Virus record (IMG/VR): IMGVR_UViG_3300025276_000022
Length of the DNA stretch: 64,000 nt
Direction: 5' to 3' (one strand)
Source: a virus
In this document: positions 29,976-53,279 of the stretch, piece after piece
How positions within the stretch are numbered: the first letter of the stretch is position 1
Layout of the letters: each line of letters opens with the position of its first letter
The notes under the pieces: generated by a model
The model's input: only the letters and a program-made list of their open reading frames with translations
The model's database searches: none
What the model was told of the DNA's origin: nothing
Translations under genes and position numbers: made by a program

Positions 29976-30293
29976 ATGAGCGATAATGTAATTTTAGTAG
30001 GTATCATTTTAGTCATAGTAGGATTTATTGTTATGAGTAAAAAATCTAGCACTGGGTCAACTGGTAAAGGTACTACCCCAGTAAAGCCATCAACGCCTGT
30101 GGTAGATCGCCATGCTGAAAGCATTGCTGTACAAAGAGACATGTTTTCTAAAATGACTGTTACTCAATTAAAAGTATATGTTAAAGAAAACAAATCTAAA
30201 TTGGGAGAATCGACGGGTCGTATGCCAACTAAGAAGGCCGAACTCATTGAAGCTGCTATGCAAATATTCCAATCTTGGACTGAAGAAAAATGA
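29976..30293 (+). CDS. Membrane-anchored protein with Rho-N/SAP-like C-terminus
   Basis: N-terminal TM; SKMTVTQLK...TKKAELI. Confidence 0.6.
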   Translation: MSDNVILVGIILVIVGFIVMSKKSSTGSTGKGTTPVKPSTPVVDRHAESIAVQRDMFSKMTVTQLKVYVKENKSKLGESTGRMPTKKAELIEAAMQIFQSWTEEK

Positions 30294-30967
30294 AAACCTT
30301 TAAAACCTTCTTGAACGAAGGAGTCAATGATCCAGCAATCTTCAAAGCAGTCTTTCTTGCAGGCGGGCCTGGATCAGGTAAGTCTTTCATAGTCGGTAAG
30401 ACTGGACTAACCTCTATGGGTTATAGAGTAAGTAATTCTGACGATGCGTTCGAAGCAGGCCTAAAGAAAGCAGGACTAGAAATGAGTCCTGAGAATATCT
30501 TTTCTGTTAAAGGTCAAGAACTTCGAGGTAAGGCTACTGCAATAACTAAAACTAGACAGACTATGTATATCAAAGGTCGGTTAGGATTAGTCATCGACGG
30601 TACTGGTAAGAATCTTGAAAAGATGAAGACCCAAGCAAAAGACCTTAAAAAGATTGGATATGATGTTGCGATGATATTTGTCAACACTGACCTAGAAACT
30701 GCTATGGCTAGAAATCGCGCAAGAGCGAGAAAACTACCTGATGATATGGTCAAAGAATATTGGCAAGAGATCCAAAACAATATAGGTGCGTTTCAAAGTT
30801 TGTTCGGTAAGAAGAACTTTCTAGTTGTCGATAACTCAGATGGTAAAGACTGGACTTCCGAAACTCTTCGTGCATACAAAGACGTAACAAGATTCACTGA
30901 GGCACCTGTGGAGAATGCCAAATCTAAGAAGTGGATTGCCGCAGAAAAGAAAAAGAAAACTCGCTAA
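30290..30967 (+). CDS. P-loop kinase (zeta-toxin/PNK-like) with capsid-targeting-like N-terminus
   Basis: MKTFKTFLNE; AGGPGSGKS; VIDGT; ARNRAR lid. Confidence 0.8.
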   Translation: MKTFKTFLNEGVNDPAIFKAVFLAGGPGSGKSFIVGKTGLTSMGYRVSNSDDAFEAGLKKAGLEMSPENIFSVKGQELRGKATAITKTRQTMYIKGRLGLVIDGTGKNLEKMKTQAKDLKKIGYDVAMIFVNTDLETAMARNRARARKLPDDMVKEYWQEIQNNIGAFQSLFGKKNFLVVDNSDGKDWTSETLRAYKDVTRFTEAPVENAKSKKWIAAEKKKKTR

Positions 30968-36180: not shown

Positions 36181-36366
36181 ATGGTAACAAAAAACGATAT
36201 TACTGGAGATGCTATACGCTCCAAGTCGTTATCAAAACAAGGACGTGATAACTGGGACGACATCTTCGGGAAGAAGAACACGGAAGAAGCGCCTACAGAA
36301 GTAAAGATAAACACGGTTATAAATAAAGATACTCTGATACTAACACGAGAAGATTTTATAGAGTAA
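36181..36366 (+). CDS. Small hypothetical phage protein
   Basis: KNDITGD.I.SK...DNWD.IFG. Confidence 0.7.
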   Translation: MVTKNDITGDAIRSKSLSKQGRDNWDDIFGKKNTEEAPTEVKINTVINKDTLILTREDFIE

Positions 36367-38465: not shown

Positions 38466-39620
38466 ATGGCAGCTTTATCTTACAAAGAAATTACCAAGGA
38501 GAACAAGGAGTATCGTTCTGAGCTTCTTGTCGAAAAGGTTTTTTCTAGAAACGGAAAGTCTAATAATTTTGTTATTGAAGGAGAAGGTGTTCTGGTCGCA
38601 GAATATATTAAGATAAACGACAAGAAGATCTCTTCTGGAGATACCCATGATATAGTAGGTATGATATTTGCTCTGAAACTTTTACCCGTTTCCCAAAGAA
38701 AGATTTTAGTATGCGGTAAATTTCAAGGACAGTCTGCGAATAAATCGTTTCTTATATCTAAATTAGAGAAGACCGAAGAATTTGGTGGTCAACCTGCCGG
38801 CGGTACCAGAGTAAACAAAGGTATCCAATTCGAACACGACTTCGTTGATGTTCTAAACGAACAACTTTCGGGTACTATGAGTAGTAAGACGTATTCGAAA
38901 GAAGTCGACTACATTCTCAAAGCTTGTGCTAAAAAGGAAAGATCTCCGGTAGTAAAGATATTGGCGGAAGGTGGACAGAACCAAAGTCGTCCTATCGCAG
39001 TACAGGGCGGTAAGTTATATATTGCCCCTAATGACCATAAAGCACATGGCGAGAAGTTGACTGATATTACTCTAGTTCACGCCAACAACAAAAAATCATA
39101 TCTATCTTTGAAGTTCTCAAGTACTCTCACTTTCATGAATGCTGGTGTTGGAATGATCTTCACTCAGAGAGACATGTTAAATAATGAAGTCACTACTCCA
39201 ATCGGTAAGCAGATAATAGAGACGTTTGGGTTGGACGAAACTATGTTTTGTGAGGTGTTCACGCAGTATGGAAAACAAAAGTTTCCTTCTGTAAAAACCT
39301 CTATGAACAATACCAAGTTAAAGAATTTCCTTCAAACATGTATCGGCTCTGGTTATTGGATGGTTCATGGTATGGAAGGTGGAAAGGTTTACTTCTGGGA
39401 AATGTCTTCTGCGAAAAATCCGCAGTATTCTACTATCACGGGTGATGTTGAGATTCAATACGGTGGTTCTTCAGGTAAAGGTAAACGTATTGATATCGTG
39501 TTCAGCAATCAATATTTTGACTTTAAGATAAACATTAGAAATAAACAGGGGGGTTTGTATCCTTCACACATAATGTGTGACTATAAGAGCAAACCAGCAA
39601 CAGGAAAAGTGTTACTATGA
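38466..39620 (+). CDS. Restriction-endonuclease-like PD-(D/E)XK protein
   Basis: NKGIQFE, LTDITL...YLSLK, KINIRNKQGG.YP. Confidence 0.55.
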   Translation: MAALSYKEITKENKEYRSELLVEKVFSRNGKSNNFVIEGEGVLVAEYIKINDKKISSGDTHDIVGMIFALKLLPVSQRKILVCGKFQGQSANKSFLISKLEKTEEFGGQPAGGTRVNKGIQFEHDFVDVLNEQLSGTMSSKTYSKEVDYILKACAKKERSPVVKILAEGGQNQSRPIAVQGGKLYIAPNDHKAHGEKLTDITLVHANNKKSYLSLKFSSTLTFMNAGVGMIFTQRDMLNNEVTTPIGKQIIETFGLDETMFCEVFTQYGKQKFPSVKTSMNNTKLKNFLQTCIGSGYWMVHGMEGGKVYFWEMSSAKNPQYSTITGDVEIQYGGSSGKGKRIDIVFSNQYFDFKINIRNKQGGLYPSHIMCDYKSKPATGKVLL

Positions 39621-40837
39621 ATACGTTTCAGCAGTTCATCACAGAGAACAAAAATACACACATGACTCATATTGAGGACAAGGTTCTCTATGGTGGTGTT
39701 GATGGTACGCGTCAGGCTATTAATGCTCTGCGTGGTCTACGAGATCTACTTGCTGGACATGGTGCCGGTAAGGTCTCTGTCAAGTGGGACGGTGCTCCTG
39801 CTGTATTCTGTGGAACAGATCCAAGTGACGATAAGTTCTTTGTTGCTAAGAAAGGTATCTTCAATAAGAATCCAATGGTATACAAGACTAATGCTGACAT
39901 CGATGCTGATACATCTGGTGACCTAAATGCGAAGTTAAAGGAAGCATTACTATATCTTCCGGAGTTAGGAATCGTGGGTGTTATTCAGGGAGACTTCCTT
40001 TTCGGTAAAGGTGATGTATCTACCAAGGTTATCGAAGGACAGAAGTATACTGCATTCCACCCAAACACTATTGCATATGCAGTACCATATGATCAAGCAA
40101 AATCTGTACGAGATGCTAAGATCGGTATCGTGTGGCACACTACGTATAAAGGTGCTACTTTCGAATCTATGACAGCGTCATACGGAGTAGATGTTTCTAA
40201 ACTAACGAAGTCTAAGAACGTATGGTCTCAAGACGCGATGTTGCGAGATGCTACTAAAGCGACAATGTCAGACAAGGACACCGTTGAAGTTAATGCACGT
40301 TTGACTGAGATCGGTCGTCTATTCAAGCAGACCTCTGCAAAAACTCTAAAGACCTTAGAGGCCTCTCCGAAGTTAGCACAGGCGATAGAAACCTACAACA
40401 ATTCGTTCGTTCGTGCCGGTGCATTGTTGCCTGACTCAAAAAGACATGTTAGCGGATTGATAAGTAATAGACAAGCTTACTATAAAAAGGAGATAGACAG
40501 TAAGAAGTCTGAACGTGGTAAGGAGACGTGGAGACAGAAATATGCAGACGAAATGGAGTTTTTCTCTGCAAAAAACCGTGCTAACCTAGTTAAAATGTTC
40601 GAATTACAGAAATTGATAGTTTTGGTCAAATTAAAACTTATAAATAGTTTAGACAAACTAAAGACAATTGATACTTTCGTTAAAACTTCTAAAGGTTACA
40701 AAGTAACTGGTGAAGAAGGTTATGTAGCAATTGACACACTTGGTGGTGATGCGGTGAAACTTGTTGATCGTATGGAATTCTCATACAACAACTTTTCATC
40801 CGATATATTAAAGGGCTGGGATTCAGCTCGTAAATAA
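39617..40837 (+). CDS. Ligase-like (KxDG) conserved T4-like protein with capsid-targeting-like N-terminus
   Basis: MNTFQQFITE; KNTHMTHIED; SVKWDGAPA; QGD; EGYV; VKLVDR.EFS. Confidence 0.7.
   Translation: MNTFQQFITENKNTHMTHIEDKVLYGGVDGTRQAINALRGLRDLLAGHGAGKVSVKWDGAPAVFCGTDPSDDKFFVAKKGIFNKNPMVYKTNADIDADTSGDLNAKLKEALLYLPELGIVGVIQGDFLFGKGDVSTKVIEGQKYTAFHPNTIAYAVPYDQAKSVRDAKIGIVWHTTYKGATFESMTASYGVDVSKLTKSKNVWSQDAMLRDATKATMSDKDTVEVNARLTEIGRLFKQTSAKTLKTLEASPKLAQAIETYNNSFVRAGALLPDSKRHVSGLISNRQAYYKKEIDSKKSERGKETWRQKYADEMEFFSAKNRANLVKMFELQKLIVLVKLKLINSLDKLKTIDTFVKTSKGYKVTGEEGYVAIDTLGGDAVKLVDRMEFSYNNFSSDILKGWDSARK
40639..40646 (+). promoter_or_regulatory. Internal late promoter
   Basis: TATAAATA ~220 nt upstream of 40862. 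Confidence 0.55.
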
Positions 40838-40861: not shown

Positions 40862-41236
40862 ATGACTATGATGTCATTTAAAGATATGGTAAATGAAGTA
40901 CTCGACGTAGCACAACGTCGAAAACTTGCACAGCGAATGAAAAGAAATAAATCCAGAATTGCAATCGCACGTAAACGTAGCGAAAAGAAAATTGCTAACA
41001 TGGATACCCTCAAGAAACGTGCACGTCGTCAAGCACGTAATGCAATGGTCGCTAAGATCACTAAGGGTAAAGGTAAAGCGGATATGTCTATCGCTCGTAA
41101 GAAAGACATAGAAAAAAGGATGGAACGTCCTGCCGTACAATCACGTATAGATCGCCAGGCTAAGAAACTTGTAAAGGTTGTTCGTAAGCAAGAAATCGAA
41201 CGCAAAAGAAATAGGTCTAAAGGCGATAACAAGTGA
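40862..41236 (+). CDS. Highly basic protein with capsid-targeting-like N-terminus
   Basis: MSFKDMVNE then Arg/Lys-rich helix. Confidence 0.8.
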   Translation: MTMMSFKDMVNEVLDVAQRRKLAQRMKRNKSRIAIARKRSEKKIANMDTLKKRARRQARNAMVAKITKGKGKADMSIARKKDIEKRMERPAVQSRIDRQAKKLVKVVRKQEIERKRNRSKGDNK

Positions 41237-42912
41237 TTAAGAATTTTAGTCAATACCTTGTCGAAGAAGAACGAGAAGTTTACTTTACGTTTGGTCGTAT
41301 GAATCCTCCTACGATTGGCCATGGCAAGGTGATGGATGCGTTAGCAATAAAGTCTGGGAAATCAGACTATAAGGTATTTGTGTCACAGTCACAAGACGCG
41401 AAGAAGAATCCTTTAGCATACGCAGATAAAATCAAGCACACAAGAAAAATGTTTCCGAAACACGCACGGAATATCATGGTGGATAAGTCTGTTAAAACAG
41501 CTATCAACGCCATGGTCGTACTATATGACCAAGGTTACAAATCCGTAACACTGGTTGTTGGAGACGACAGAATTACAGAATTCGATGTACTATTAAATAA
41601 GTATAATGGTACTAAAGCAAGACATGGTTTTTATAATTTTAAAAATATCAAGATAGTATCTGCCGGTAAGAGAGATCCAGATTCTACTGGTGTCGAAGGC
41701 ATGTCTGCTTCCAAACAAAGAGAGAACGCGTCTAGTGATGATTTCGTTTCTTTCTCGCAAGGTGTTCCTAAGTCAATGTCAGATCCAGACACACGTAAGT
41801 TATTTAACGACGTGCGTAAGGGTATGGGGCTAAAAGAAGCAAATGGATTCCGTAATCACCTAGAACTAGAAACAGTATCCGAAACACGAGAGAAATTCGT
41901 GCAAGGAGAATTGTTCGAGGTAGGCGATATAGTAGTAATCAAAGAAAGTGAAGAGGTTGCTACTATATCCGTCCTAGGTGCAAACTACGTCATCGTTGAA
42001 ACTAGCGATGGTAAGAAGATGCGTAAATGGTTAGAGTCTGTGGAGTTGATCTCCGAAGACGTTGACCAGAAGCAACTTAATGATTTAGAGAAGTTCGGTG
42101 ACCGTCTATTGAAGAAGTTCAATATCGACATCGAGTTTACTCGACACTTCGCAGACCGTATGAACGATACACGTAATAGTCCTGCTATTAAGGTAACGGA
42201 ACTTCAACGTCTGTTTAAGAAGATTGCAAAGAATAAGGGCAAAGGCATAAAAAAGCATGGGGATGCTGAGGCAGTATTGAAAGATATGCAGTCAGACCTA
42301 AATTTACCTGTCGTTGTAAACTATAAGGACGGTGAGTTCGAAATGGTTAACAAGACTATTATGCGTAAGAAGAACTTCAAAACTACTAGTCCGGTCGTGC
42401 AATACGAAGGACAGGATCCAGATATCAAGGATCGTGAAGGGACTCAACCATCACGTTATCACAAAGGTCTAGAGAAATCTACCAAGGTAAAACGTGACGC
42501 ACACTTCAAAGCAAAGAAAGATGGCCCAGCGCCAGGCGATGCAACTGCCAAGACCAAACCTTCCAAGTACACCAAGTCATTCAAGGACATGTACGACGAA
42601 GATTGTTGGGACGGTTACAAGCAAGTCGGTATGAAAAAGAAAGGTGGTAAGACAGTCCCTAATTGTGTTGCAGAAGATAATAGTCAAGGTATTAACGAAG
42701 GGTTCATGGACACAGTAAAGTCTAAGACCATCAATAAAAAAGAATATCAACATGCTTTGTCTACTTTAAAGAAGCTTCTGACTCGTAAGAGTGATGAGAA
42801 TAAAGGTAAACTAACTCATAGTACAGAGTATTATGCACAGAAGGTTGCCAAATCATATTCGGGTATGAGCACTAAAACACTGCATAGTATGTTAGGGAAA
42901 TGGAAACCATGA
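41233..42912 (+). CDS. HxGH-class nucleotidyltransferase fused to several small C-terminal modules
   Basis: MIKNFSQYLVE; FTFGRMNPPTIGH; VVGDDR; GMSASKQRE; modules after LISE, QYE, YDE, INE. Confidence 0.8.
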   Translation: MIKNFSQYLVEEEREVYFTFGRMNPPTIGHGKVMDALAIKSGKSDYKVFVSQSQDAKKNPLAYADKIKHTRKMFPKHARNIMVDKSVKTAINAMVVLYDQGYKSVTLVVGDDRITEFDVLLNKYNGTKARHGFYNFKNIKIVSAGKRDPDSTGVEGMSASKQRENASSDDFVSFSQGVPKSMSDPDTRKLFNDVRKGMGLKEANGFRNHLELETVSETREKFVQGELFEVGDIVVIKESEEVATISVLGANYVIVETSDGKKMRKWLESVELISEDVDQKQLNDLEKFGDRLLKKFNIDIEFTRHFADRMNDTRNSPAIKVTELQRLFKKIAKNKGKGIKKHGDAEAVLKDMQSDLNLPVVVNYKDGEFEMVNKTIMRKKNFKTTSPVVQYEGQDPDIKDREGTQPSRYHKGLEKSTKVKRDAHFKAKKDGPAPGDATAKTKPSKYTKSFKDMYDEDCWDGYKQVGMKKKGGKTVPNCVAEDNSQGINEGFMDTVKSKTINKKEYQHALSTLKKLLTRKSDENKGKLTHSTEYYAQKVAKSYSGMSTKTLHSMLGKWKP

Positions 42913-43242: not shown

Positions 43243-46200
43243 ATGGGTATCAAATTACAAGCTGGAAGCAAATTTAGTGCGGGCATGAAACTCTCCACCG
43301 CAAACGCTGGTTGGAGCATGATAGTGGGCGCCGATTTTTCTGACGGAGCAAGCGGAGAAAGCAATGGTGGTGCAGTATATCTGGTTAAAGAGAACGGAGA
43401 ACAGGTAGATCTTGTTCCCTCGGATCAAAATATTGGCAGTTATGGTATGTTGGGTAAAGCAGTAGCTACTAATGGAGACGTTATTGTTATCGGTCATGGC
43501 CATAATGATTTGCAAGAAAACAACGCTGGAGCTGTGTTTGTTTTCGATTCTAGTGGTCAAGAGTTATACGCACATTATGATGTTACTCCGGTTTCTGGTG
43601 AGGGGTTTGGCGATGCTATTGCACTTAGTCAAGACGGAACCAGAATGGCTGTACGTAAGAGTCTTCCTAATTACGCTGGTGTTGTGGTCTTAATGGACAT
43701 TGATGGTTCCAACAAAGTTGAAATAACCTATGGCACTGACTTTTTTGGAGGACTTGGTTATCGATTTGGATTTACCGCTAATAAGTTTGTCATTGCCGAT
43801 ACAGAACATCCGGCGGCACGTGCTGGTGAAGTTTATATCTATAACTTAGACGGTTCTCTATCAAGTGTAGTTTCTTCTCCTGCATCAGGCGATGCTCGCT
43901 TTGGTGAAAACCTAGCGGTTGATCACTCCGGATCTAAATTTGTGGTAAGTGCTCCATATGCTAACGGCGAAGCGGGCGCAATGTATGTGTACGAAGAAGA
44001 TGGTACTTTGCTTCATACAATAACAACGTCTGGTTCGAACAGACTTGGTCAACATGTCGCATATGGTTCGGGTAAGATAGTAACACTAGATAAGAAAACT
44101 AATTTCTCGCTTAAACTTCGCATATTTGACGAAGATGGGTCTAATGAAATTGTTAAAACTAGCACGACCGAACAGTATCACTTTGAGATCACCCATTGGA
44201 CTGGTGCTCTTTCAATATTTGGAAACGTTATTGCCGCTGGCGCGAGTGGGTATACCCAACGCGGCCCCCACAGCAATGCCAATTATACTATGGCCAACAA
44301 TCCGAACCCAGGCCCGGATGTTAATGGTATCGTATTCTTATACGATCTAGACGGTACTAATGAAAGAAGGATTGTTCCTACTGATCCAAATATAACTAAT
44401 CCAAACTCGTTCTACATGCCACAGTTTGGAGTAGGCATAGCAGGATATCAACAAGCAGCGCCTGTGATGCCATATGTTGCTCCAGTATATGATTGGACTT
44501 CAGCAACACAGCCACTTAATCTATCGAATGGTGGTGGCGATTCAACAGGTGCCGTGGCAAGTAACAGCACTGGGTTTGCTCAAGGGCATATGTCCTCGCC
44601 CAGCGAAGTAGTTGTATATGATACTTCTGGTAATGTTGTTCATACTATATCTGGGCCAGTCGGTGCCAGTTCTTTCGGGGGATATAGAATGCTGCTTATG
44701 AACGAAACCCATATATTAATAGCATCCTATAACTACGCGACTGATGGATTAAATGTTGGTAAAGCTTGGTTACATGATGTAACAACTGGTACATTATTAC
44801 ATTCATTCCTCCCTGCTGGTTATGCTCAAAACACTGGGGTCGACCTTGCATTCGGTTCCTGTATTGGATTGTCTGAAAAGTATGCCGCAATTGGTATAAA
44901 TGCATACGCCGACCAGCCAAAGATTCATCAATATGATGTTTCTACAGGATTACTAGTACGAGAAATTACACCACATGCGCCAGTAGGAACAAACCAACGT
45001 TGGGGACACGGTGTTGCTATATCGGACTCTTATGTCGCGGCTGGTGTGCCGAGCGGATCAAACCACGGGTACGTAGAAATATTTGACGCCTCAAACGGAC
45101 AGTTCTTGAGAACTTTAAATAATCCACAACCAAGCAGCTTGGATTATTTCGGCACCACAGTGAGGATTTCTGGTGACTATATTTGCATTTCTACTCCTAA
45201 CGAAGATAGTCCTACCTTTGGATATGACACTGGTGTAGTATACGTATTTAATATAACCGATGGTTCTTTACTACAAACTATTACTCCAACTATCGCCACA
45301 GGCAGCTTCGGTATGGATATTTCTGTTTCAGGCAAATATCTTGCTATTAGTGACTACGCCCACGTCCCCGGCCGGACAACAGACTACCCCGGCCGTGCCT
45401 TTGTTTATGATATGACAGATGGTTCATTGTTATATACTGCAAATAATCCAACTCCAGTTGATTATGATTTCATGGGACAGTCTGTCTCGATTTCGGGCGG
45501 ATCATTAATTACTGTTGCGAGGAATGATGGACAGAACCAAGCACATGTGTGGAAAGCACCGTTAGGCTCTACTCAACTTCCATATGTTGCTCCGCCTAGT
45601 GCACCTAGTGCACCTAGTGCACCTACACCAAATAAAATCTTAATGTACTCGCCAGACAATTTGTACAACAGCGCGATCAATAATATCCGTGGTGGTTTGG
45701 TGATGTCGGATTTTGACGGTAGTAACTCTATCACTTTACAAACACTAACACCACAGTCTAGTGCCGGTGGTGATGGTAAAGTTGTAAGTATCACACGGTC
45801 AAATAGTCAAATTAGAATTTATGACCAAACTACTGGTCAGTTAGAACAGACCTTTAACGATGCGACAGTAGATTCCGCTATGGCAGCCCAAATTAATGAG
45901 TCCGCTATGTCTATCGCTATTGGAGCAGGAAAAATATTCATTAACGCTGCTGAATATTATCCAAATGGCCTTGGTGCGATTATCGTCGTAGATTTACTGG
46001 ATCGTAATGTTCCTACATACCTTATTACTCCTGTAGTGTCAGGTACATACTCTCGAATCGGCACGTCCGGTTACGGCGGACTTAGATTCATTGAGGGTAG
46101 AATTTATGCCGGTTCAGCACCGTGGGATGCCACTGCTAGAGGAATACATGGTTTTGATGTAGATGGATCCAATCCTACGTTTATCCCCACCAGTTACGGG

Positions 46201-46662
46201 ACACATAGTTTTGTTAAATACGGTGACAACTGGGCAGCGAGTAATGGAGATGACGGAGTAGAGATACTATCTTCAACTGGACAAGTCCTACACTCTGTGA
46301 AGGTTTCTCCACAATTTGGGTATCACTTAGAAACTACTTTATCCGGAAAGTTGGTTGTTGTCGACCATACTCAGTTTAACAGCAAAGTTTATATATATGA
46401 TGAAGGACTTACTAATGAGGTTGTTATTAGTGGTGATCAACAAGCGAACGATGATTTATGGGGTGATGGTAGTGTCACCAATCGTGCTGGTGTGGCAGTC
46501 TTCGGTAATGATATACTAGTATCGGCGAAAAATGCAGATGCTAACGGTCTAACTAACTGTGGAGCAGTATATCGTTACAACGACTCTGGAGTTCTACAGG
46601 ATATATTCTACGGAACTGTCAACCAGCAAATGTTAGGTCAACGTATCGAAGTAGCTTACTAA
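43243..46662 (+). CDS. Large beta-propeller (FG-GAP-like) protein, probable virion adhesin
   Basis: Repeated FG..VA / GAVY.Y..DG blades; three blocks separated by Pro-rich PYVAP linkers. Confidence 0.75.
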   Translation: MGIKLQAGSKFSAGMKLSTANAGWSMIVGADFSDGASGESNGGAVYLVKENGEQVDLVPSDQNIGSYGMLGKAVATNGDVIVIGHGHNDLQENNAGAVFVFDSSGQELYAHYDVTPVSGEGFGDAIALSQDGTRMAVRKSLPNYAGVVVLMDIDGSNKVEITYGTDFFGGLGYRFGFTANKFVIADTEHPAARAGEVYIYNLDGSLSSVVSSPASGDARFGENLAVDHSGSKFVVSAPYANGEAGAMYVYEEDGTLLHTITTSGSNRLGQHVAYGSGKIVTLDKKTNFSLKLRIFDEDGSNEIVKTSTTEQYHFEITHWTGALSIFGNVIAAGASGYTQRGPHSNANYTMANNPNPGPDVNGIVFLYDLDGTNERRIVPTDPNITNPNSFYMPQFGVGIAGYQQAAPVMPYVAPVYDWTSATQPLNLSNGGGDSTGAVASNSTGFAQGHMSSPSEVVVYDTSGNVVHTISGPVGASSFGGYRMLLMNETHILIASYNYATDGLNVGKAWLHDVTTGTLLHSFLPAGYAQNTGVDLAFGSCIGLSEKYAAIGINAYADQPKIHQYDVSTGLLVREITPHAPVGTNQRWGHGVAISDSYVAAGVPSGSNHGYVEIFDASNGQFLRTLNNPQPSSLDYFGTTVRISGDYICISTPNEDSPTFGYDTGVVYVFNITDGSLLQTITPTIATGSFGMDISVSGKYLAISDYAHVPGRTTDYPGRAFVYDMTDGSLLYTANNPTPVDYDFMGQSVSISGGSLITVARNDGQNQAHVWKAPLGSTQLPYVAPPSAPSAPSAPTPNKILMYSPDNLYNSAINNIRGGLVMSDFDGSNSITLQTLTPQSSAGGDGKVVSITRSNSQIRIYDQTTGQLEQTFNDATVDSAMAAQINESAMSIAIGAGKIFINAAEYYPNGLGAIIVVDLLDRNVPTYLITPVVSGTYSRIGTSGYGGLRFIEGRIYAGSAPWDATARGIHGFDVDGSNPTFIPTSYGTHSFVKYGDNWAASNGDDGVEILSSTGQVLHSVKVSPQFGYHLETTLSGKLVVVDHTQFNSKVYIYDEGLTNEVVISGDQQANDDLWGDGSVTNRAGVAVFGNDILVSAKNADANGLTNCGAVYRYNDSGVLQDIFYGTVNQQMLGQRIEVAY

Positions 46663-46680
46663 AAATAAATAGGATACCTT

Positions 46681-46863
46681 ATGAGCAAAACTAAGAAACC
46701 TCGTAACAAAAAGATGTCACAAGCCAAGAAGGAAAAGTTACAGTCTACTAGTTTTGAAAACAACCAATTTAGCACAATGGGGTCGCAAGGCCCCAAACTA
46801 AAGGCAACCAATATTAATACAACCGCAACGAAAATGATTCGGGGCGCATCAAGAGGAAGTTAA
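46681..46863 (+). CDS. Small basic hypothetical protein
   Basis: AGGA RBS, 60 aa. Confidence 0.6.
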   Translation: MSKTKKPRNKKMSQAKKEKLQSTSFENNQFSTMGSQGPKLKATNINTTATKMIRGASRGS

Positions 46864-46865
46864 AG

Positions 46866-48926
46866 GTGAAGAAATTTAGTGAGATAAGAACTCATACTCA
46901 AGAGGCAAAAGAACATACGTACACTGTGGTTCATGCTAAGAAAGGTAAAGTAGTAGTTACTGCACCCACTTCATATGATGCGGCAAAGAAAGCGGCAAAG
47001 CAATGGAAACTAAAGTCTACTGGCGGTGTTGATGCTCACATTATGGAAGCAAAACAAGCTATAGTGTGGAAAGTTAAACCACCAAAGGGTCAGAAGAATA
47101 TTCATCCTGATTCCAAATGGCCAGGAATAAAGCCAGGCGATATCCAAAAGATGAATGAGTCTGTCGAACTTGACGAACTTTGCGAAGCGCAAGGCAAGTT
47201 AAATGCCAAAGGCGAGATCGAGATGACTGCGAAGAACTACGCCAAGATTCACAAGGACTTTAAGACCAAGATCAAAGGAACACCTTTTGCTATGCAGATA
47301 CATCCTAAGACTGGCGGTTCTGCACTGTTCCCTGTTACGTTCATCAAAGAGTCTACCGACCTCACGGAAGGTAAGAACCTCATTCCTCAGTTCCAAGATA
47401 TCGTCAAGAACAAACAAGCGAAAAAGATCGGTGGTACTATGATAGATATGTACACCGCAAGCACCATTACCCATGTATATGATAAAGTATCTGATGCCAA
47501 TAAGAAGAAGATGGAAACATCAAACATTAATGTGCTTATCGGACTTTCACGTAAAATCATGGGTGCTGGCCAAAAGGAATCAGTAGAGGTTGTAGAGGGA
47601 GACGAATATAAGAATATCTCCAAGACAATAACCCAAACTCCTAAGCATAAACGAGACAAGAAAGCAACCGCTGCAAAACCTGCCAAGACTAATGCTAGAG
47701 AAGTTGCTCGTCGTAAAGCGATTGAGAAACATCAAGCAAAGAACGCTGCTAAGAAAGAAAAAGGATACTGGGACGAGAGTGCCAAAGGTATGGTAGGCGG
47801 TTTCTCAGTAGAGATACCAAAACAAACTATCTCTGGTAAGACTATCGGTGGTGGTAAGAACGGAATCTTTGTTAAAGCTAAGACTGCTCGTCAAGCAATC
47901 AGCATGGCAGCAAAACGTCTGGGTGTTGATTTCAAGATGCTTAAAGTCGGTAAGGTATTGAAAGAAGGTGTTGAATCAATAAATGAAGCAAAAGTAGAAA
48001 CAGAAAGACACTTTGGTAAAAAAGGTATTATCATTATGATTCGTGATGGAAACAAAATGATATCTGCAATATTCAAAGATAAAAAGAACGCTGATGAATT
48101 TAATAGAAACAAACCAGCTGATGTTAAAAAACTTATACAACTTGCTAAGGAAACAAAATATCCAAAAGCAATTGATGAATCGGTAAACCTTGAAGAAGGA
48201 AAAATGAAAGAGTTTCATGACTATATTGATCAAGGTAAATCTGCACAGTGGATTGCTAAGAAGATGGGTCTGGACATGAAGACTGTAAAAGAATTGATGG
48301 CAGACATGAAAGAGTCTGTCGAAGAAGGTAAGACTGGTGCAGCACGATTGACCAACCGACTAAAGAAGTCCGGTGTTGATCTTGACAAACGTGCCAAGGA
48401 TCGTGCCGCAAGTCATGCAGAACTAAAGAAGAAGTATGCTACTGAGTCTGTCGAACTGGACGAAGCATATCAGCAGTTCTTGGATAAGACTCCTAACTGG
48501 GGTGAAGACAAGGCAATCTCTTATGGACGCAAGAAGGGTTACAAAGAGATCGGTGTATGTGGTCACGGTAAGATAGATGGTATTGTATTGTTCGGTATGG
48601 ATGCTGGCGACAAAGCATATGTCGGTAAGGAAGCAAAGATTAAGACTGGTCAAACAGTATTCCGTTATGCTACTAGCCGCACTGTCGCAGGCGATATCTT
48701 TCCTTTAGTTAAGATTGATGTTAAGAAAGGTCTTCTATATAACCTATCTCAGAAGTCTAGTGAAGGTGAGATCGAACACGCAGAGTTTGAAACTAAGAGT
48801 TCTAAGCTAAGATATCTTCGTCTTCTATCTACTGCGAACCTCCGTGATATTGTTGGATTCGATGCAGAGGTTAAAGAATCTACTGCACCTAAAACTCTTA
48901 GCGATATTAGAGCGAAAAGATTTTAA
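46866..48926 (+). CDS. Putative internal-head polyprotein
   Basis: MKKFSEIR; about ten Lys-rich modules separated by acidic ES(V/T)x(L/V)xE linkers. Confidence 0.7.
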   Translation: MKKFSEIRTHTQEAKEHTYTVVHAKKGKVVVTAPTSYDAAKKAAKQWKLKSTGGVDAHIMEAKQAIVWKVKPPKGQKNIHPDSKWPGIKPGDIQKMNESVELDELCEAQGKLNAKGEIEMTAKNYAKIHKDFKTKIKGTPFAMQIHPKTGGSALFPVTFIKESTDLTEGKNLIPQFQDIVKNKQAKKIGGTMIDMYTASTITHVYDKVSDANKKKMETSNINVLIGLSRKIMGAGQKESVEVVEGDEYKNISKTITQTPKHKRDKKATAAKPAKTNAREVARRKAIEKHQAKNAAKKEKGYWDESAKGMVGGFSVEIPKQTISGKTIGGGKNGIFVKAKTARQAISMAAKRLGVDFKMLKVGKVLKEGVESINEAKVETERHFGKKGIIIMIRDGNKMISAIFKDKKNADEFNRNKPADVKKLIQLAKETKYPKAIDESVNLEEGKMKEFHDYIDQGKSAQWIAKKMGLDMKTVKELMADMKESVEEGKTGAARLTNRLKKSGVDLDKRAKDRAASHAELKKKYATESVELDEAYQQFLDKTPNWGEDKAISYGRKKGYKEIGVCGHGKIDGIVLFGMDAGDKAYVGKEAKIKTGQTVFRYATSRTVAGDIFPLVKIDVKKGLLYNLSQKSSEGEIEHAEFETKSSKLRYLRLLSTANLRDIVGFDAEVKESTAPKTLSDIRAKRF

Positions 48927-49603
48927 TGAAAAGTTTTCGTTCATTTATAACAGACAGTGTTGATGCCGAGAAAGAATATGGTAAGTCATTTGTCGCGTCT
49001 GCCAAGTCAGTTGGTGTGCAACGTAAGTTGACCAAAGAACTTGGTGTTAAACTCAAAGAGGTAGAGAAGTCTTTGGGACACGGTGGTGGTGGTAATGGAC
49101 TTACACCGGATGATGTGAAGTCGAACCCTAAGTGGAAAGCGGCAAAGAAAGCATTGGATGTTGCATTCAAGAAAGAACAGCAAATGAACCAAGCGATGTC
49201 AAAGGCGTTTGGTAAGCAGATGAAAGACTTCCGTAACAAAGACCGTAGAGGTTATATGTCTTTGTTTATCGGAGAGTCTACAGAAGCTTGTTGTGAAGAC
49301 TGCGTAGAAGAACTCATCATTGAAGACGGTGTATTCATCAACGAAGATGGTAAGAAAGATAACGTGAAACTTAACAATCCTACCCGTGGTGGTAGTAAGA
49401 AGTTTTACGTATATGTAAAGAATGAGAAGGGTAACGTGGTTAAGGTTTCTTTCGGAGATCCCAATATGGAGATCAAAAGAGATGATCCAGCACGTCGTAA
49501 AAGTTTCAGGGCGAGGCACAACTGTGCAGATCCTGGCCCGAAGTGGAAAGCACGGTACTGGTCATGTTATCAATGGCGAGCCGGTGCAAAAGTAGATAAT
49601 TGA
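48926..49603 (+). CDS. Two-module basic protein with capsid-targeting-like N-terminus
   Basis: MKSFRSFITD; C-terminal KKFYVYVK...FGDP...RRKSFRARHNC...ARYWSC. Confidence 0.8.
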   Translation: MKSFRSFITDSVDAEKEYGKSFVASAKSVGVQRKLTKELGVKLKEVEKSLGHGGGGNGLTPDDVKSNPKWKAAKKALDVAFKKEQQMNQAMSKAFGKQMKDFRNKDRRGYMSLFIGESTEACCEDCVEELIIEDGVFINEDGKKDNVKLNNPTRGGSKKFYVYVKNEKGNVVKVSFGDPNMEIKRDDPARRKSFRARHNCADPGPKWKARYWSCYQWRAGAKVDN

Positions 49604-50069: not shown

Positions 50070-50933
50070 GTGATGTCAAACATCAATAATATAATGGAGG
50101 CTTATTTGTCAATGAAGGTCTCCGAGCAAGAAGCACTTGCCGAAGCTAAAAAGTTGGATGCAGTAGACGATAAGGCGAACGATAAGAAGTTCACTGATCG
50201 TAAAGATAAAGATATAGATAACGACGGTGACGTAGATTCATCTGATGAGTTCTTACATAAGAAGCGTAAGGCAATCGACAACGAGATTGACGGTGGAGAG
50301 AAACCTGCTGACAATGCTAAACCTAAGAAGGGTGTTAATCCTTTCAAGAAGGAAGAAGTTGAGATTGACGAAGCACGTCAAATGAAAGATCCTAAGAAAG
50401 ACACTATGGTCACTAAGGGTGGTAAGACTATCGTAATCGACAAGTCTAAGGAAGCAGAATACCTCAAGAAGGGTTGGACACTATCTGAAGAAAAAGACGA
50501 AGAAGAAGATGATGTCGAGACTGATAAGAAACCTTTCCCACCTAAGAAGAAGAAGCCTGCAGATGTAGATGGTGATGTTGAAGAACCAGAAGCTGACGGA
50601 GATTCCGAAATTAAAAAGAATCCCAAGACTGCGGATAAGAAAGCTGAGATCTCTAAGATCGAGAGTGTAGACACTCGTTCTGCGTTTGAAAAAATGTGGT
50701 CAGAGATTGTTGAAGCAACTGCGCCTAAGAAAGATGGCGAGAAGTACGATGATAACTCATCCCAGCACGATAAGGACGTTATCAAAAATCATAAGAAGTC
50801 TGATAAGAAGATTGAAGATGGTGTAGAAGATAGTCACGCCAAGACCTTTAAAGCTGGTGGTAAGGATCAAAAACAAGCCCCTGCTCGAAGCGGTGCTGAC
50901 AATCTGAAAAATGGTGACAAATCACCTAAGTAA
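50070..50933 (+). CDS. Charged low-complexity protein, possible prohead core component
   Basis: DIDNDGDVDSSD EF-hand-like loop; LAE/IDE/LSE/IVE sites. Confidence 0.7.
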   Translation: MMSNINNIMEAYLSMKVSEQEALAEAKKLDAVDDKANDKKFTDRKDKDIDNDGDVDSSDEFLHKKRKAIDNEIDGGEKPADNAKPKKGVNPFKKEEVEIDEARQMKDPKKDTMVTKGGKTIVIDKSKEAEYLKKGWTLSEEKDEEEDDVETDKKPFPPKKKKPADVDGDVEEPEADGDSEIKKNPKTADKKAEISKIESVDTRSAFEKMWSEIVEATAPKKDGEKYDDNSSQHDKDVIKNHKKSDKKIEDGVEDSHAKTFKAGGKDQKQAPARSGADNLKNGDKSPK

Positions 50934-52510: not shown

Positions 52511-53091
52511 AGTCAGCCGCAGACATAGTCTACACAATTAGATTTTTAAAACTACTCGTTACTAAGTTCGAGGACACAGGTGCGTTCAAAGCAGGCATCA
52601 TTGATAAGGACGGTAAAAAGAACCCAGACTTCTCTATGGATAAGATGGATGACCGTGAGGCATATCGTGATCATTATACCTCCTTCCATCGTCTTGTTTA
52701 TAACCTAAAGAAAATTATGGCAAAGGCTCCTGGCGGTTCTTCGGTAGTCGCTCGGTATGGTGCTGCGCTTGCATTGATTAAAGAACATGGTGAACTATCT
52801 AACTCTAATCTACAAAAGATACATGAGAAGACTGGTATTGATATCTTGGACATTCTAATGGAAAGTTCTCAGTGGTATGTCCTAGAGAATGGATGCGTTG
52901 GACAAGGTGTCTATCGTATGCGTAATAACTCTATGATTGATACTGGAGAAGAATTAGTCCGGAAGGGAGATCAAGTACGTATCTCCGAAGATAATCTATG
53001 TCATAACATCCTAGGTATACCCGTATACGAAGGAACCCACTTACGAACAGGTAAACGTATTCTGTTCTCCGCTAACGAGATAATGAAATGA
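52498..53091 (+). CDS. Conserved T4-like hypothetical protein
   Basis: AD.VYT.RFLKLL..F....AF..GIID..G; FHRLV.NLK. Confidence 0.85.
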   Translation: MGILKSAADIVYTIRFLKLLVTKFEDTGAFKAGIIDKDGKKNPDFSMDKMDDREAYRDHYTSFHRLVYNLKKIMAKAPGGSSVVARYGAALALIKEHGELSNSNLQKIHEKTGIDILDILMESSQWYVLENGCVGQGVYRMRNNSMIDTGEELVRKGDQVRISEDNLCHNILGIPVYEGTHLRTGKRILFSANEIMK

Positions 53092-53279
53092 AAACATATA
53101 AAGAATTCATGCAATCATTCGAAGAAGAGATTGCTAACAATACTTCAGGCGTTTCTGGTGCTGGTGAAAACCCAGACCAAACCGTAGTTATACGCAAGAA
53201 GCACGATCGCAAAAATTCGCGTAAGAATGCAGCTGCACTACTCAGAAGAGTTTTTCCAGAAAGATTTGAAAATAAGTAG
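53088..53279 (+). CDS. Small protein with capsid-targeting-like N-terminus
   Basis: MKTYKEFMQSFEEE. Confidence 0.75.
   Translation: MKTYKEFMQSFEEEIANNTSGVSGAGENPDQTVVIRKKHDRKNSRKNAAALLRRVFPERFENK

Follow-up and report, generated by a model that had tools for sequence, protein, structure and literature searches.

The open reading frame (ORF) at 46866-48926 (+) of the IMG/VR record IMGVR_UViG_3300025276_000022 probably encodes a capsid-targeted polyprotein that would be cut by the head protease of a T4-like phage into small basic internal proteins. The analysis covered a 64,000-nt stretch of this record, given as one strand and referred to here as the window, which corresponds to the region of replication and accessory genes in an uncultured T4-like myovirus of marine origin with a genome of ~141-151 kb. 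The window encodes a gp43-type DNA polymerase that is 73% identical to that of Phage C48C1 and ~46% identical to those of cyanomyoviruses, together with UvsX, a gp41-type helicase, a clamp loader, gp46/47 homologs, and NrdA. In the ORF list the polyprotein gene specifies 686 aa, with a GTG start and a stop at 48924-48926. A GAGGA ribosome-binding site lies upstream of the GTG, and the start at 46866 is supported by the homologous leaders that relatives carry. A preliminary description of this DNA had noted an MKKFSEIR N terminus followed by about ten unrelated Lys-rich modules, and the 76-kDa chain matches that account: Lys makes up 16.5% of its residues, the modules are all basic (isoelectric point [pI] 8.3-10.4, net charge +1 to +10), and the linkers between them are all acidic.

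Recurrent Joints Resembling Protease Sites Separate the Modules

The same description had listed eight acidic linkers that end in x-E and are followed by Ala or Gly, and all eight were located in the ORF (a slash marks the proposed cut): HIME/A (residues 58-62), ESVELDELCE/A (98-108), ESTDLTE/G (162-169), ESVEVVE/G (238-245), ESINE/A (370-375), ESVNLEE/G (438-445), ESVEE/G (483-488), and ESVELDE/A (527-534). Beyond these, three more joints, TQE/A (residue 13), WDE/S (304), and VKE/S (671), are all module borders as judged from homology breakpoints. Chance was assessed with 5000 composition-preserving shuffles of the polyprotein. The pattern [LIV]xE[AGS] occurs 12 times compared with 2.06 +/- 1.39 expected (shuffle maximum 8), and ES..E[AG] occurs 7 times compared with 0.28 expected (shuffle maximum 4); the observed count of either pattern was reached in 0 of 5000 shuffles. 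The arrangement of joint sites in the polyprotein is not due to chance.

The joint was defined further from 225 distinct linkers drawn from 240 homologs and aligned on their final Glu. The search pattern fixed P1, P1′, and the opening ES but left P3 free, and at this free position Leu (45%), Val (33%), and Ile (8%) together account for 86% of the linkers. Glu, Asp, or Asn occupies P2; Ala (59%) or Gly (40%) follows at P1′; and Lys stands at P2′ in 40%. The joints fall into two length classes, ES[VIL]xE and ESVxLxE, with the overall consensus K-E/S-V-x-(L-x)-E/(A or G). In T4, the gp21 rule is cleavage after the Glu of L/I-x-E, first seen at the Glu-Ala bond of gp22 (PMC9026906). The Glu-Ser that opens the joint resembles the end of the T4 gp24 propeptide, LLRE/S, and the capsid-protein site FLAE/S of relatives, and cleavage at both ends of the joint, which would remove the acidic linker, is plausible. 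The seven ES joints in the window are encoded by differing synonymous codons, which indicates that selection acts on the joint peptide. Three of the seven share a 12-nt string, GAGTCTGTCGAA, and DNA microhomology at the joints may additionally help module exchange.

The N-Terminal Leader Resembles T4 Capsid-Targeting Sequences

Residues 1-13, MKKFSEIRTHTQE/A, encoded at 46866-46904 (+), form a candidate capsid-targeting sequence (CTS). We take the cut positions in the leaders of T4 IPI, IPII, and IPIII to be those of the established T4 literature. Read from NC_000866, IPII and IPIII begin with MKTYQEFIAE/A and IPI with MKTFKEF..ITE/A. In T4, an Asp at CTS position 10 prevents processing and leaves targeting intact. 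Targeting by the IPIII CTS depends on residues 4 and 7, and its processing on residues 8 and 10 (PMC9026906); MKKFSEIR has the aromatic residue at position 4 (F4) and the hydrophobic residue at position 7 (I7), a resemblance at the level of sequence. The leaders of relatives, such as MKTFQELRE/S, MRTFKDIRE/S, and MKNFSELRTLNE/S, end in L-R-E/S, I-R-E/S, or L-N-E/S, and these leaders also resemble the T4 gp24 propeptide, MAKINELLRE/S.

Judged by sequence, leader and linker are interchangeable at one E/A junction: multi-module relatives read MKTFKSLTE/AYQQFLD and VKKFKSFIAE/AYQQFL where the window polyprotein has ESVELDE/AYQQFLD. Homologs P0061 and P0044 contain a fossil leader inside the chain, E/AIKTFKDISE/A. 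Module 10, the last and largest module of the polyprotein, also occurs in relatives as a stand-alone protein, and a T4 CTS-like leader (MKNFKDFIAE/A, MKTFKEFISE/A, and MKSFKEILTE/A, for instance) immediately precedes the same E/A junction in 23 of 69 such proteins, compared with 8 of 272 background ORFs that start with such a leader, several of which are themselves cargo candidates or the capsid protein.

Relatives Exchange Modules at the Joints

Metagenomic homologs of the polyprotein comprise 566 of near length and 277 shorter sequences. Few are collinear with it; in local alignments most share single modules, at 50-97% identity and in another order, as illustrated by P0012, in which the order is module 6, 10, 3, 8, 1. 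Dividing the homologs at the joints and clustering the resulting pieces gave ~89 segment families, arranged in dozens of different architectures; the clustering was single-linkage and rough, and its qualitative outcome is robust. Module 10 stands first, in the middle, or last, and its homologs include 170 representatives, of which 69 are stand-alone proteins 110-175 aa in length. The homology breakpoints fall on the joints. Module content thus varies among relatives while the linkers persist, as the preliminary description had suggested should be checked, and a single fold of invariant order, which it had named as the opposing outcome, is excluded: modules are reused, dropped, and reordered from one relative to the next.

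The polyprotein gene sits in a conserved genome slot, which runs from a ligase-like gene and a cytidylyltransferase through a variable position to a small ORF, the polyprotein, the genes at 48926, 49739, and 50070, and on to nrdA. The flanks of the slot are 85-100% identical among relatives, and the content of the polyprotein gene itself varies. All 59 related loci share genes with T4-like phages; a related-locus search with P0258 found none.

Relatives Encode a gp21-Type Protease and Candidate Substrates

Three IMG/VR contigs of 145-151 kb that carry polyprotein homologs encode a Peptidase_S77 protein (E 1e-40 to 4e-44) and gp23. A fourth contig, of 150.7 kb, which carries a stand-alone, leader-bearing module 10, also encodes Peptidase_S77, and the S77 protease is present on every large contig tested. 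In the protease of relative G002, the GELNHP and GVSxRGxGS motifs that it has in common with T4 gp21 are intact, and the capsid protein of the relatives has FLTE/T or FLAE/S aligned with FLTE/A of T4 gp23. No alternative protease is encoded beside the polyprotein gene, as assessed with the ORF list, Pfam, and PHROGs.

When the 272 ORFs encoded by the window and G002 are ordered by the number of [LIV]xE[AGS] sites per 100 aa (genome mean 0.34), the scaffold protein gp22, the classic substrate of the protease, comes first (2.58 per 100 aa), gp21 fourth, and the G002 polyprotein fifth. The window polyprotein is eighth in density and has the highest absolute site count of the 272 ORFs.

In relatives, the slot of gp68, flanked by the gp67-like gene and gp21, is occupied by an ORF of 65 aa (1254-1451 in L063; 77481-77678 (-) in G002) that starts with MKKFRDLRE/A or MKTFKHLRE/S, the leader type of the polyprotein. 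Compared with the polyprotein modules, this ORF is not significantly similar (best E 0.04).

A Model for Loading and Release and Its Alternatives

We propose that the leader, MKKFSEIR..E/A, would act as a T4 internal-protein CTS and take the chain into the scaffold core of the prohead, where a gp21-type prohead protease, once activated, would cut after the Glu at each joint. The joint consensus ends in an aliphatic-x-Glu site and often opens with a second, Glu/Ser site, and because it offers sites at both ends, the acidic linkers of 4-9 residues would probably be excised. The roughly ten small basic proteins so released (4-15 kDa, pI 8-10) would remain associated with the DNA and most likely accompany it out of the capsid at infection, a single leader having loaded the whole set in equimolar amounts. 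Since the same short joint bounds each module, an exchange, loss, or gain of modules would leave loading and release unaffected. CTS fusions as large as β-galactosidase are packaged and delivered by T4, at 20-200 copies per particle, and the size of the polyprotein should therefore be no obstacle. The preliminary description had proposed that one gene loads a whole set of proteins and releases them. The part of that proposal concerned with loading and cutting is strengthened by the leader, the joints, the S77 protease, the capsid-protein site, the site density, the shuffling, and the lone module; ejection of the pieces and a role for them as effectors are put forward more cautiously.

It is possible, with the balance falling slightly short of even, that these genes make up a plug-and-play cargo system of ocean T4-like phages, in which the leader and a fixed cuttable joint, E-S-V-x-L-x-E/(A or G), let small proteins be added, removed, and reordered and then delivered with the DNA. 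The joints would in that case be both the release sites and the evolutionary exchange units of a mostly unknown early-acting repertoire of ~89 module families, some of them with folds that have no counterpart among solved structures. For some modules, DNA binding or charge neutralization is likely given the helix-turn-helix (HTH) module and the basic helices described below, and the hypervariability alone hints at a counter-defense or host-specific role.

Several observations weigh against capsid loading and cleavage. The leader site of the window protein, T-Q-E/A, has Thr at P3 and thus no aliphatic residue there, and by comparison with P0002 it resembles the junction left by a deletion. Some relatives with shared modules begin without a CTS-like start (MFKKPEDISPLP.. 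or MAKVETER..). The invariant Glu-Ser that opens the joint is absent from the published T4 motif, and the P3 residue of this opening site is often nonaliphatic. The 64-kb window does not extend to the head genes, and the evidence for the protease comes from relatives. At a whole-protein predicted local distance difference test (pLDDT) score of 38, most modules are putative folded domains only. A tblastn search of 50,697 cultured phage records gave no match for the polyprotein or for two stand-alone module-10 homologs. Finally, only the window and L002 have a late-promoter-like element, AATAAATA, 17 nt upstream of the 60-aa ORF that precedes the polyprotein gene; the idea that it serves as a late promoter for the polyprotein was rejected, the element being kept only in the nearest relative.

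Some of these points would fit an uncleaved cytoplasmic multidomain factor that binds DNA or protein and in which the joints are flexible connectors and recombination scars or microhomologies, an explanation that we regard as unlikely. In keeping with it, module 8 is HTH-like, the source names of some homologs are "transcriptional regulator" or "antirepressor," some arrays lack a CTS-like start, the late-promoter-like element is not conserved among relatives, and the 12-nt string common to three of the seven ES joints could promote recombination. The other four joints, however, specify the same peptide by different codons, and the aliphatic P3, Glu P1, and small P1′ found across 225 linkers amount to a constraint at the peptide level. 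An uncleaved factor would also leave unexplained both the interchange of leader and joint at the same E/A junction and the gp22/gp21-like density of sites.

Somewhat less probable again is a role in assembly: after loading and cleavage in the prohead, the chain would supplement the scaffold or core or supply DNA-neutralizing peptides, with its fragments largely expelled or inert, and would not provide a set of ejected effectors. Core and scaffold genes are conserved and lie in the head cluster, whereas the polyprotein gene is hypervariable and distant from it, like the T4 ip genes, and module 10 is a well-folded domain of ~125 aa with many stand-alone homologs, unlike scaffold debris. These differences have to be set against the cutting of T4 gp22, gp67, and gp68 into many fragments by gp21, the uniformly basic modules and acidic linkers, and the CTS-led small ORF in the gp68 slot of relatives. 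We consider it very improbable that the joints are cut by some other host or phage protease or represent a short binding motif unrelated to head maturation. The L/I-x-E rule does leave the conserved Glu-Ser start of the joint unexplained, but LLRE/S of T4 gp24 and FLAE/S of the relatives show that Glu/Ser fits gp21-type sites. Moreover, no other protease gene adjoins the polyprotein gene, the loci examined share many T4-like genes, and the S77 protease recurs on all large contigs tested. These rivals are less well supported than the capsid-cargo reading.

Features of the Individual Modules

The modules follow one another directly on the plus strand. Module 1 (aa 14-61; 46905-47048), which ends in HIME/A and has a net charge of +5, sits internally or last in other proteins, such as P0012 (residues 332-391). 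Module 2 (aa 62-107; 47049-47186) is delimited by its linker pattern, ESVELDELCE/A, and its charge; module 3 (aa 108-168; 47187-47369; linker ESTDLTE/G) takes other positions in P0012, P0041, and P0100; and module 4 (aa 169-244; 47370-47597; linker ESVEVVE/G) is matched alone in ~35 IMG/VR loci. Module 5 (aa 245-304; 47598-47777), a Lys/Arg-rich helical unit with a net charge of +10, ends in WDE/S, and its border with module 6 is shown by P0012, the N terminus of which is MRTFKDIRE/SAKGMVGG. Module 6 (aa 305-374; 47778-47987; linker ESINE/A), delimited by homology breakpoints, is the first module, immediately behind the leader, in P0012-P0032 and in the 74-aa P0175. Breakpoints also delimit module 7 (aa 375-444; 47988-48197; linker ESVNLEE/G), which starts with AKVETER.. 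and often opens proteins as M-AKVETER.. among its many homologs, so that its junction Ala is also a natural N terminus. Module 8 occupies aa 445-487 (48198-48326; linker ESVEE/G). Module 9 (aa 488-533; 48327-48464; linker ESVELDE/A) is a basic helical unit recognized from breakpoints and charge, and module 10 (aa 534-671; 48465-48878), recognized from its homologs and a structural model, comprises an alpha/beta domain of ~125 aa and a floppy end that finishes in VKE/S. The C-terminal tail, STAPKTLSDIRAKRF (aa 672-686; 48879-48923), is shared with P0002, P0046, and P0148, which it closes regardless of the preceding module.

Searched whole and module by module against Pfam and PHROGs, the polyprotein matched no family, with only weak HTH matches for module 8, and ESM Atlas gave no usable match. 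The AlphaFold model of the whole protein (18-row alignment) has a mean pLDDT of 38, and domain packing and linker disorder were therefore not judged from it. Its sole confident part is module 8, predicted to be a three-helix HTH-like unit with pLDDT 71-80 over residues 451-480. In profile searches of single modules, module 8 gave weak HTH/GerE matches only, and its counterpart in homologs P0177 and P0178 matched LPD5 at 25.6-25.8 bits (25.8 for P0177), below the cut-off of 27.

The AlphaFold2 model of module 10 (65-row alignment), by contrast with the whole-protein model, reached pLDDT 92.6 and a predicted template modeling score of 0.86; it comprises ~125 residues of alpha/beta structure, with the floppy end running into the next joint. 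Compared with PDB folds, Foldseek found nothing at E<=0.001 (E>0.6), and the best VIA Z was 4.1. Among the predicted structures of BFVD, module 10 matches uncharacterized proteins of the T4-like phages nt-1, KP15, and RB43 with probability 1.0 and template modeling scores of 0.54-0.64. The module-10 profile had no match at E<=1 in the T4, RB43, KP15, and nt-1 genomes, and a local hmmsearch with all filters off scored the nt-1 ORF 41136-41492 at E 1.5e-4, RB43ORF200w at 0.09, and KP15_152 at 0.67. The lengths of these three proteins equal those of the BFVD matches and, together with the weak profile scores, make them most likely the structural matches of module 10, an identification that is indirect.

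In RB43 (NC_007023, 103904-104512) and KP15 (GU295964, 102169-102957), the hypothetical gene in question lies between late genes 3 and 2. The leaders there are CTS-like, MKSFKELISE/S in RB43ORF200w and ..KKFKEFLTE/G in KP15_152, and the two genes would be candidates for unrecognized internal proteins in cultured phages. A literature search for the KP15 virion proteome found nothing useful.

Neighboring Genes and Further Candidate Cargo

Directly upstream of the polyprotein gene, at 46681-46863 (+), is a small ORF encoding a very basic protein of 60 aa, MSKTKKPRNKKMSQAKKEK..., a possible partner of the polyprotein. It is kept in close relatives at 73-98% identity and is without a leader. Between this ORF and the cytidylyltransferase gene lies a gene for an FG-GAP repeat protein of 1139 aa (43243-46662 (+); PF14312, E 4e-20), which is a variable insertion, since it is present in L002 and was not detected in most other relatives.

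The cytidylyltransferase (phrog_395/3041; 41233-42912 (+)) starts with (M)IKNFSQYLVEEE and has extra C-terminal modules behind IKE/S and ESVELISE, an internal fossil leader, KSFKDMYDE, and a stretch of the DxDxDG family (phrog_22379/4359). The chain looks like a second jointed cargo chain, one that includes an enzyme. CTS-like leaders are also borne by a P-loop kinase (30290-30967 (+); MKTFKTFLNE/G), a phrog_455 ligase-like protein (39617-40837 (+); MNTFQQFITE/N), a basic 124-aa protein (40862-41236 (+); MTMMSFKDMVNE/V), a 225-aa protein of phrog_7595 (48926-49603 (+); MKSFRSFITDSVDAE/K), and a 63-aa protein (53088-53279 (+); MKTYKEFMQSFEEE). These five further ORFs of the window may be additional head cargo. 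The gene at 50070-50933 (+) encodes a highly charged protein of 287 aa with an EF-hand-like DxDxDG motif (KDIDNDGDVDSSDEFLHKKRKAI) and four [LIV]xE/A sites, and in the distant relatives P0041, P0068, and P0100 this DxDxDG motif is fused to polyprotein modules.

The T4 late-promoter-like sequence TATAAATA occurs 13 times in the window compared with 4.8 expected. Five of the 13 occurrences, at 36318, 37268, 38405, 40639, and 49609 (+), lie within or beside the block of leader-bearing genes at 36-50 kb, a placement hinting at late expression of these genes.

Comparison with Known Systems

A literature search for protease-jointed arrays found no description of one, the papers retrieved being only those on the T4 CTS, giant-phage processing, and polyvalent proteins. 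If the capsid-cargo reading is true, it would extend T4 capsid targeting and gp21 processing from single proteins to exchangeable sets, would explain how abundant ocean phages diversify the proteins that they deliver together with DNA, and would single out hundreds of metagenomic orphans as candidates for virion cargo, possibly with DNA-binding or counter-defense roles. The combination of leader and joint rule could also be put to use in packing several proteins into T4-type capsids in fixed proportions.

The polyvalent proteins of phages and conjugative elements (Iyer, Burroughs, Anand, de Souza, and Aravind 2017; PMC5512222) contain many domains in combinatorial architectures and have been proposed to be delivered with DNA and processed into separate units (PMC5512222). 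The polyprotein is like them in placing several unrelated domains in one chain in variable order (~ten modules here, from ~89 families). Polyvalent proteins, however, have enzymatic hallmark domains and a zincin-like MPTase that is thought to process them, and profile searches of the polyprotein and its modules found no MPTase, ArdC-N, DarB-type helicase/methylase, or LPD domain apart from the subthreshold LPD5 in P0177 and P0178. Release here would instead depend on the head-maturation protease, with a fixed joint peptide as its target; the modules, at 40-140 aa, are tiny.

Multiple cleavage of head-internal proteins is known from phiKZ, 201phi2-1, and SPN3US, in which a prohead protease homologous to gp21 cuts after Glu, often at several sites in one protein, and the phiKZ motif, S/A-x-E, accommodates the S-V-E of ESVE. 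The additional cleavages in these phages serve mainly to break up long propeptides for removal and do not separate a series of shuffled modules; Pfam and PHROGs gave no homology to phiKZ-like inner-body families, and the phage described here is T4-like, a different lineage from jumbo phages with a gp175-type protease. T4 gp22, gp67, and gp68 are likewise cut at many L/I-x-E sites, and the site density of the G002 gp22 homolog is comparable with that of the polyprotein. These T4 proteins differ from the polyprotein modules in being acidic and conserved, with genes in the head cluster; the modules are basic and variable, and their gene is located away from that cluster.

The closest resemblance is to the T4 internal proteins IPI, IPII, and IPIII and to Alt. 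No homology of the polyprotein to any of these was found with Pfam and PHROGs or with the module-10 profile in the T4 genome at E<=1. The likeness lies in a leader of the form MK-x-F/Y-x-E/D-F/I/L that in relatives ends in aliphatic-x-Glu followed by a small residue, in predicted small basic products, in hypervariable content within a conserved genome, and in a gp21-type protease in the lineage. The difference is one of organization: each T4 internal protein has one leader and yields one mature product, whereas here one leader precedes about ten joint-separated modules that are shuffled between genes.

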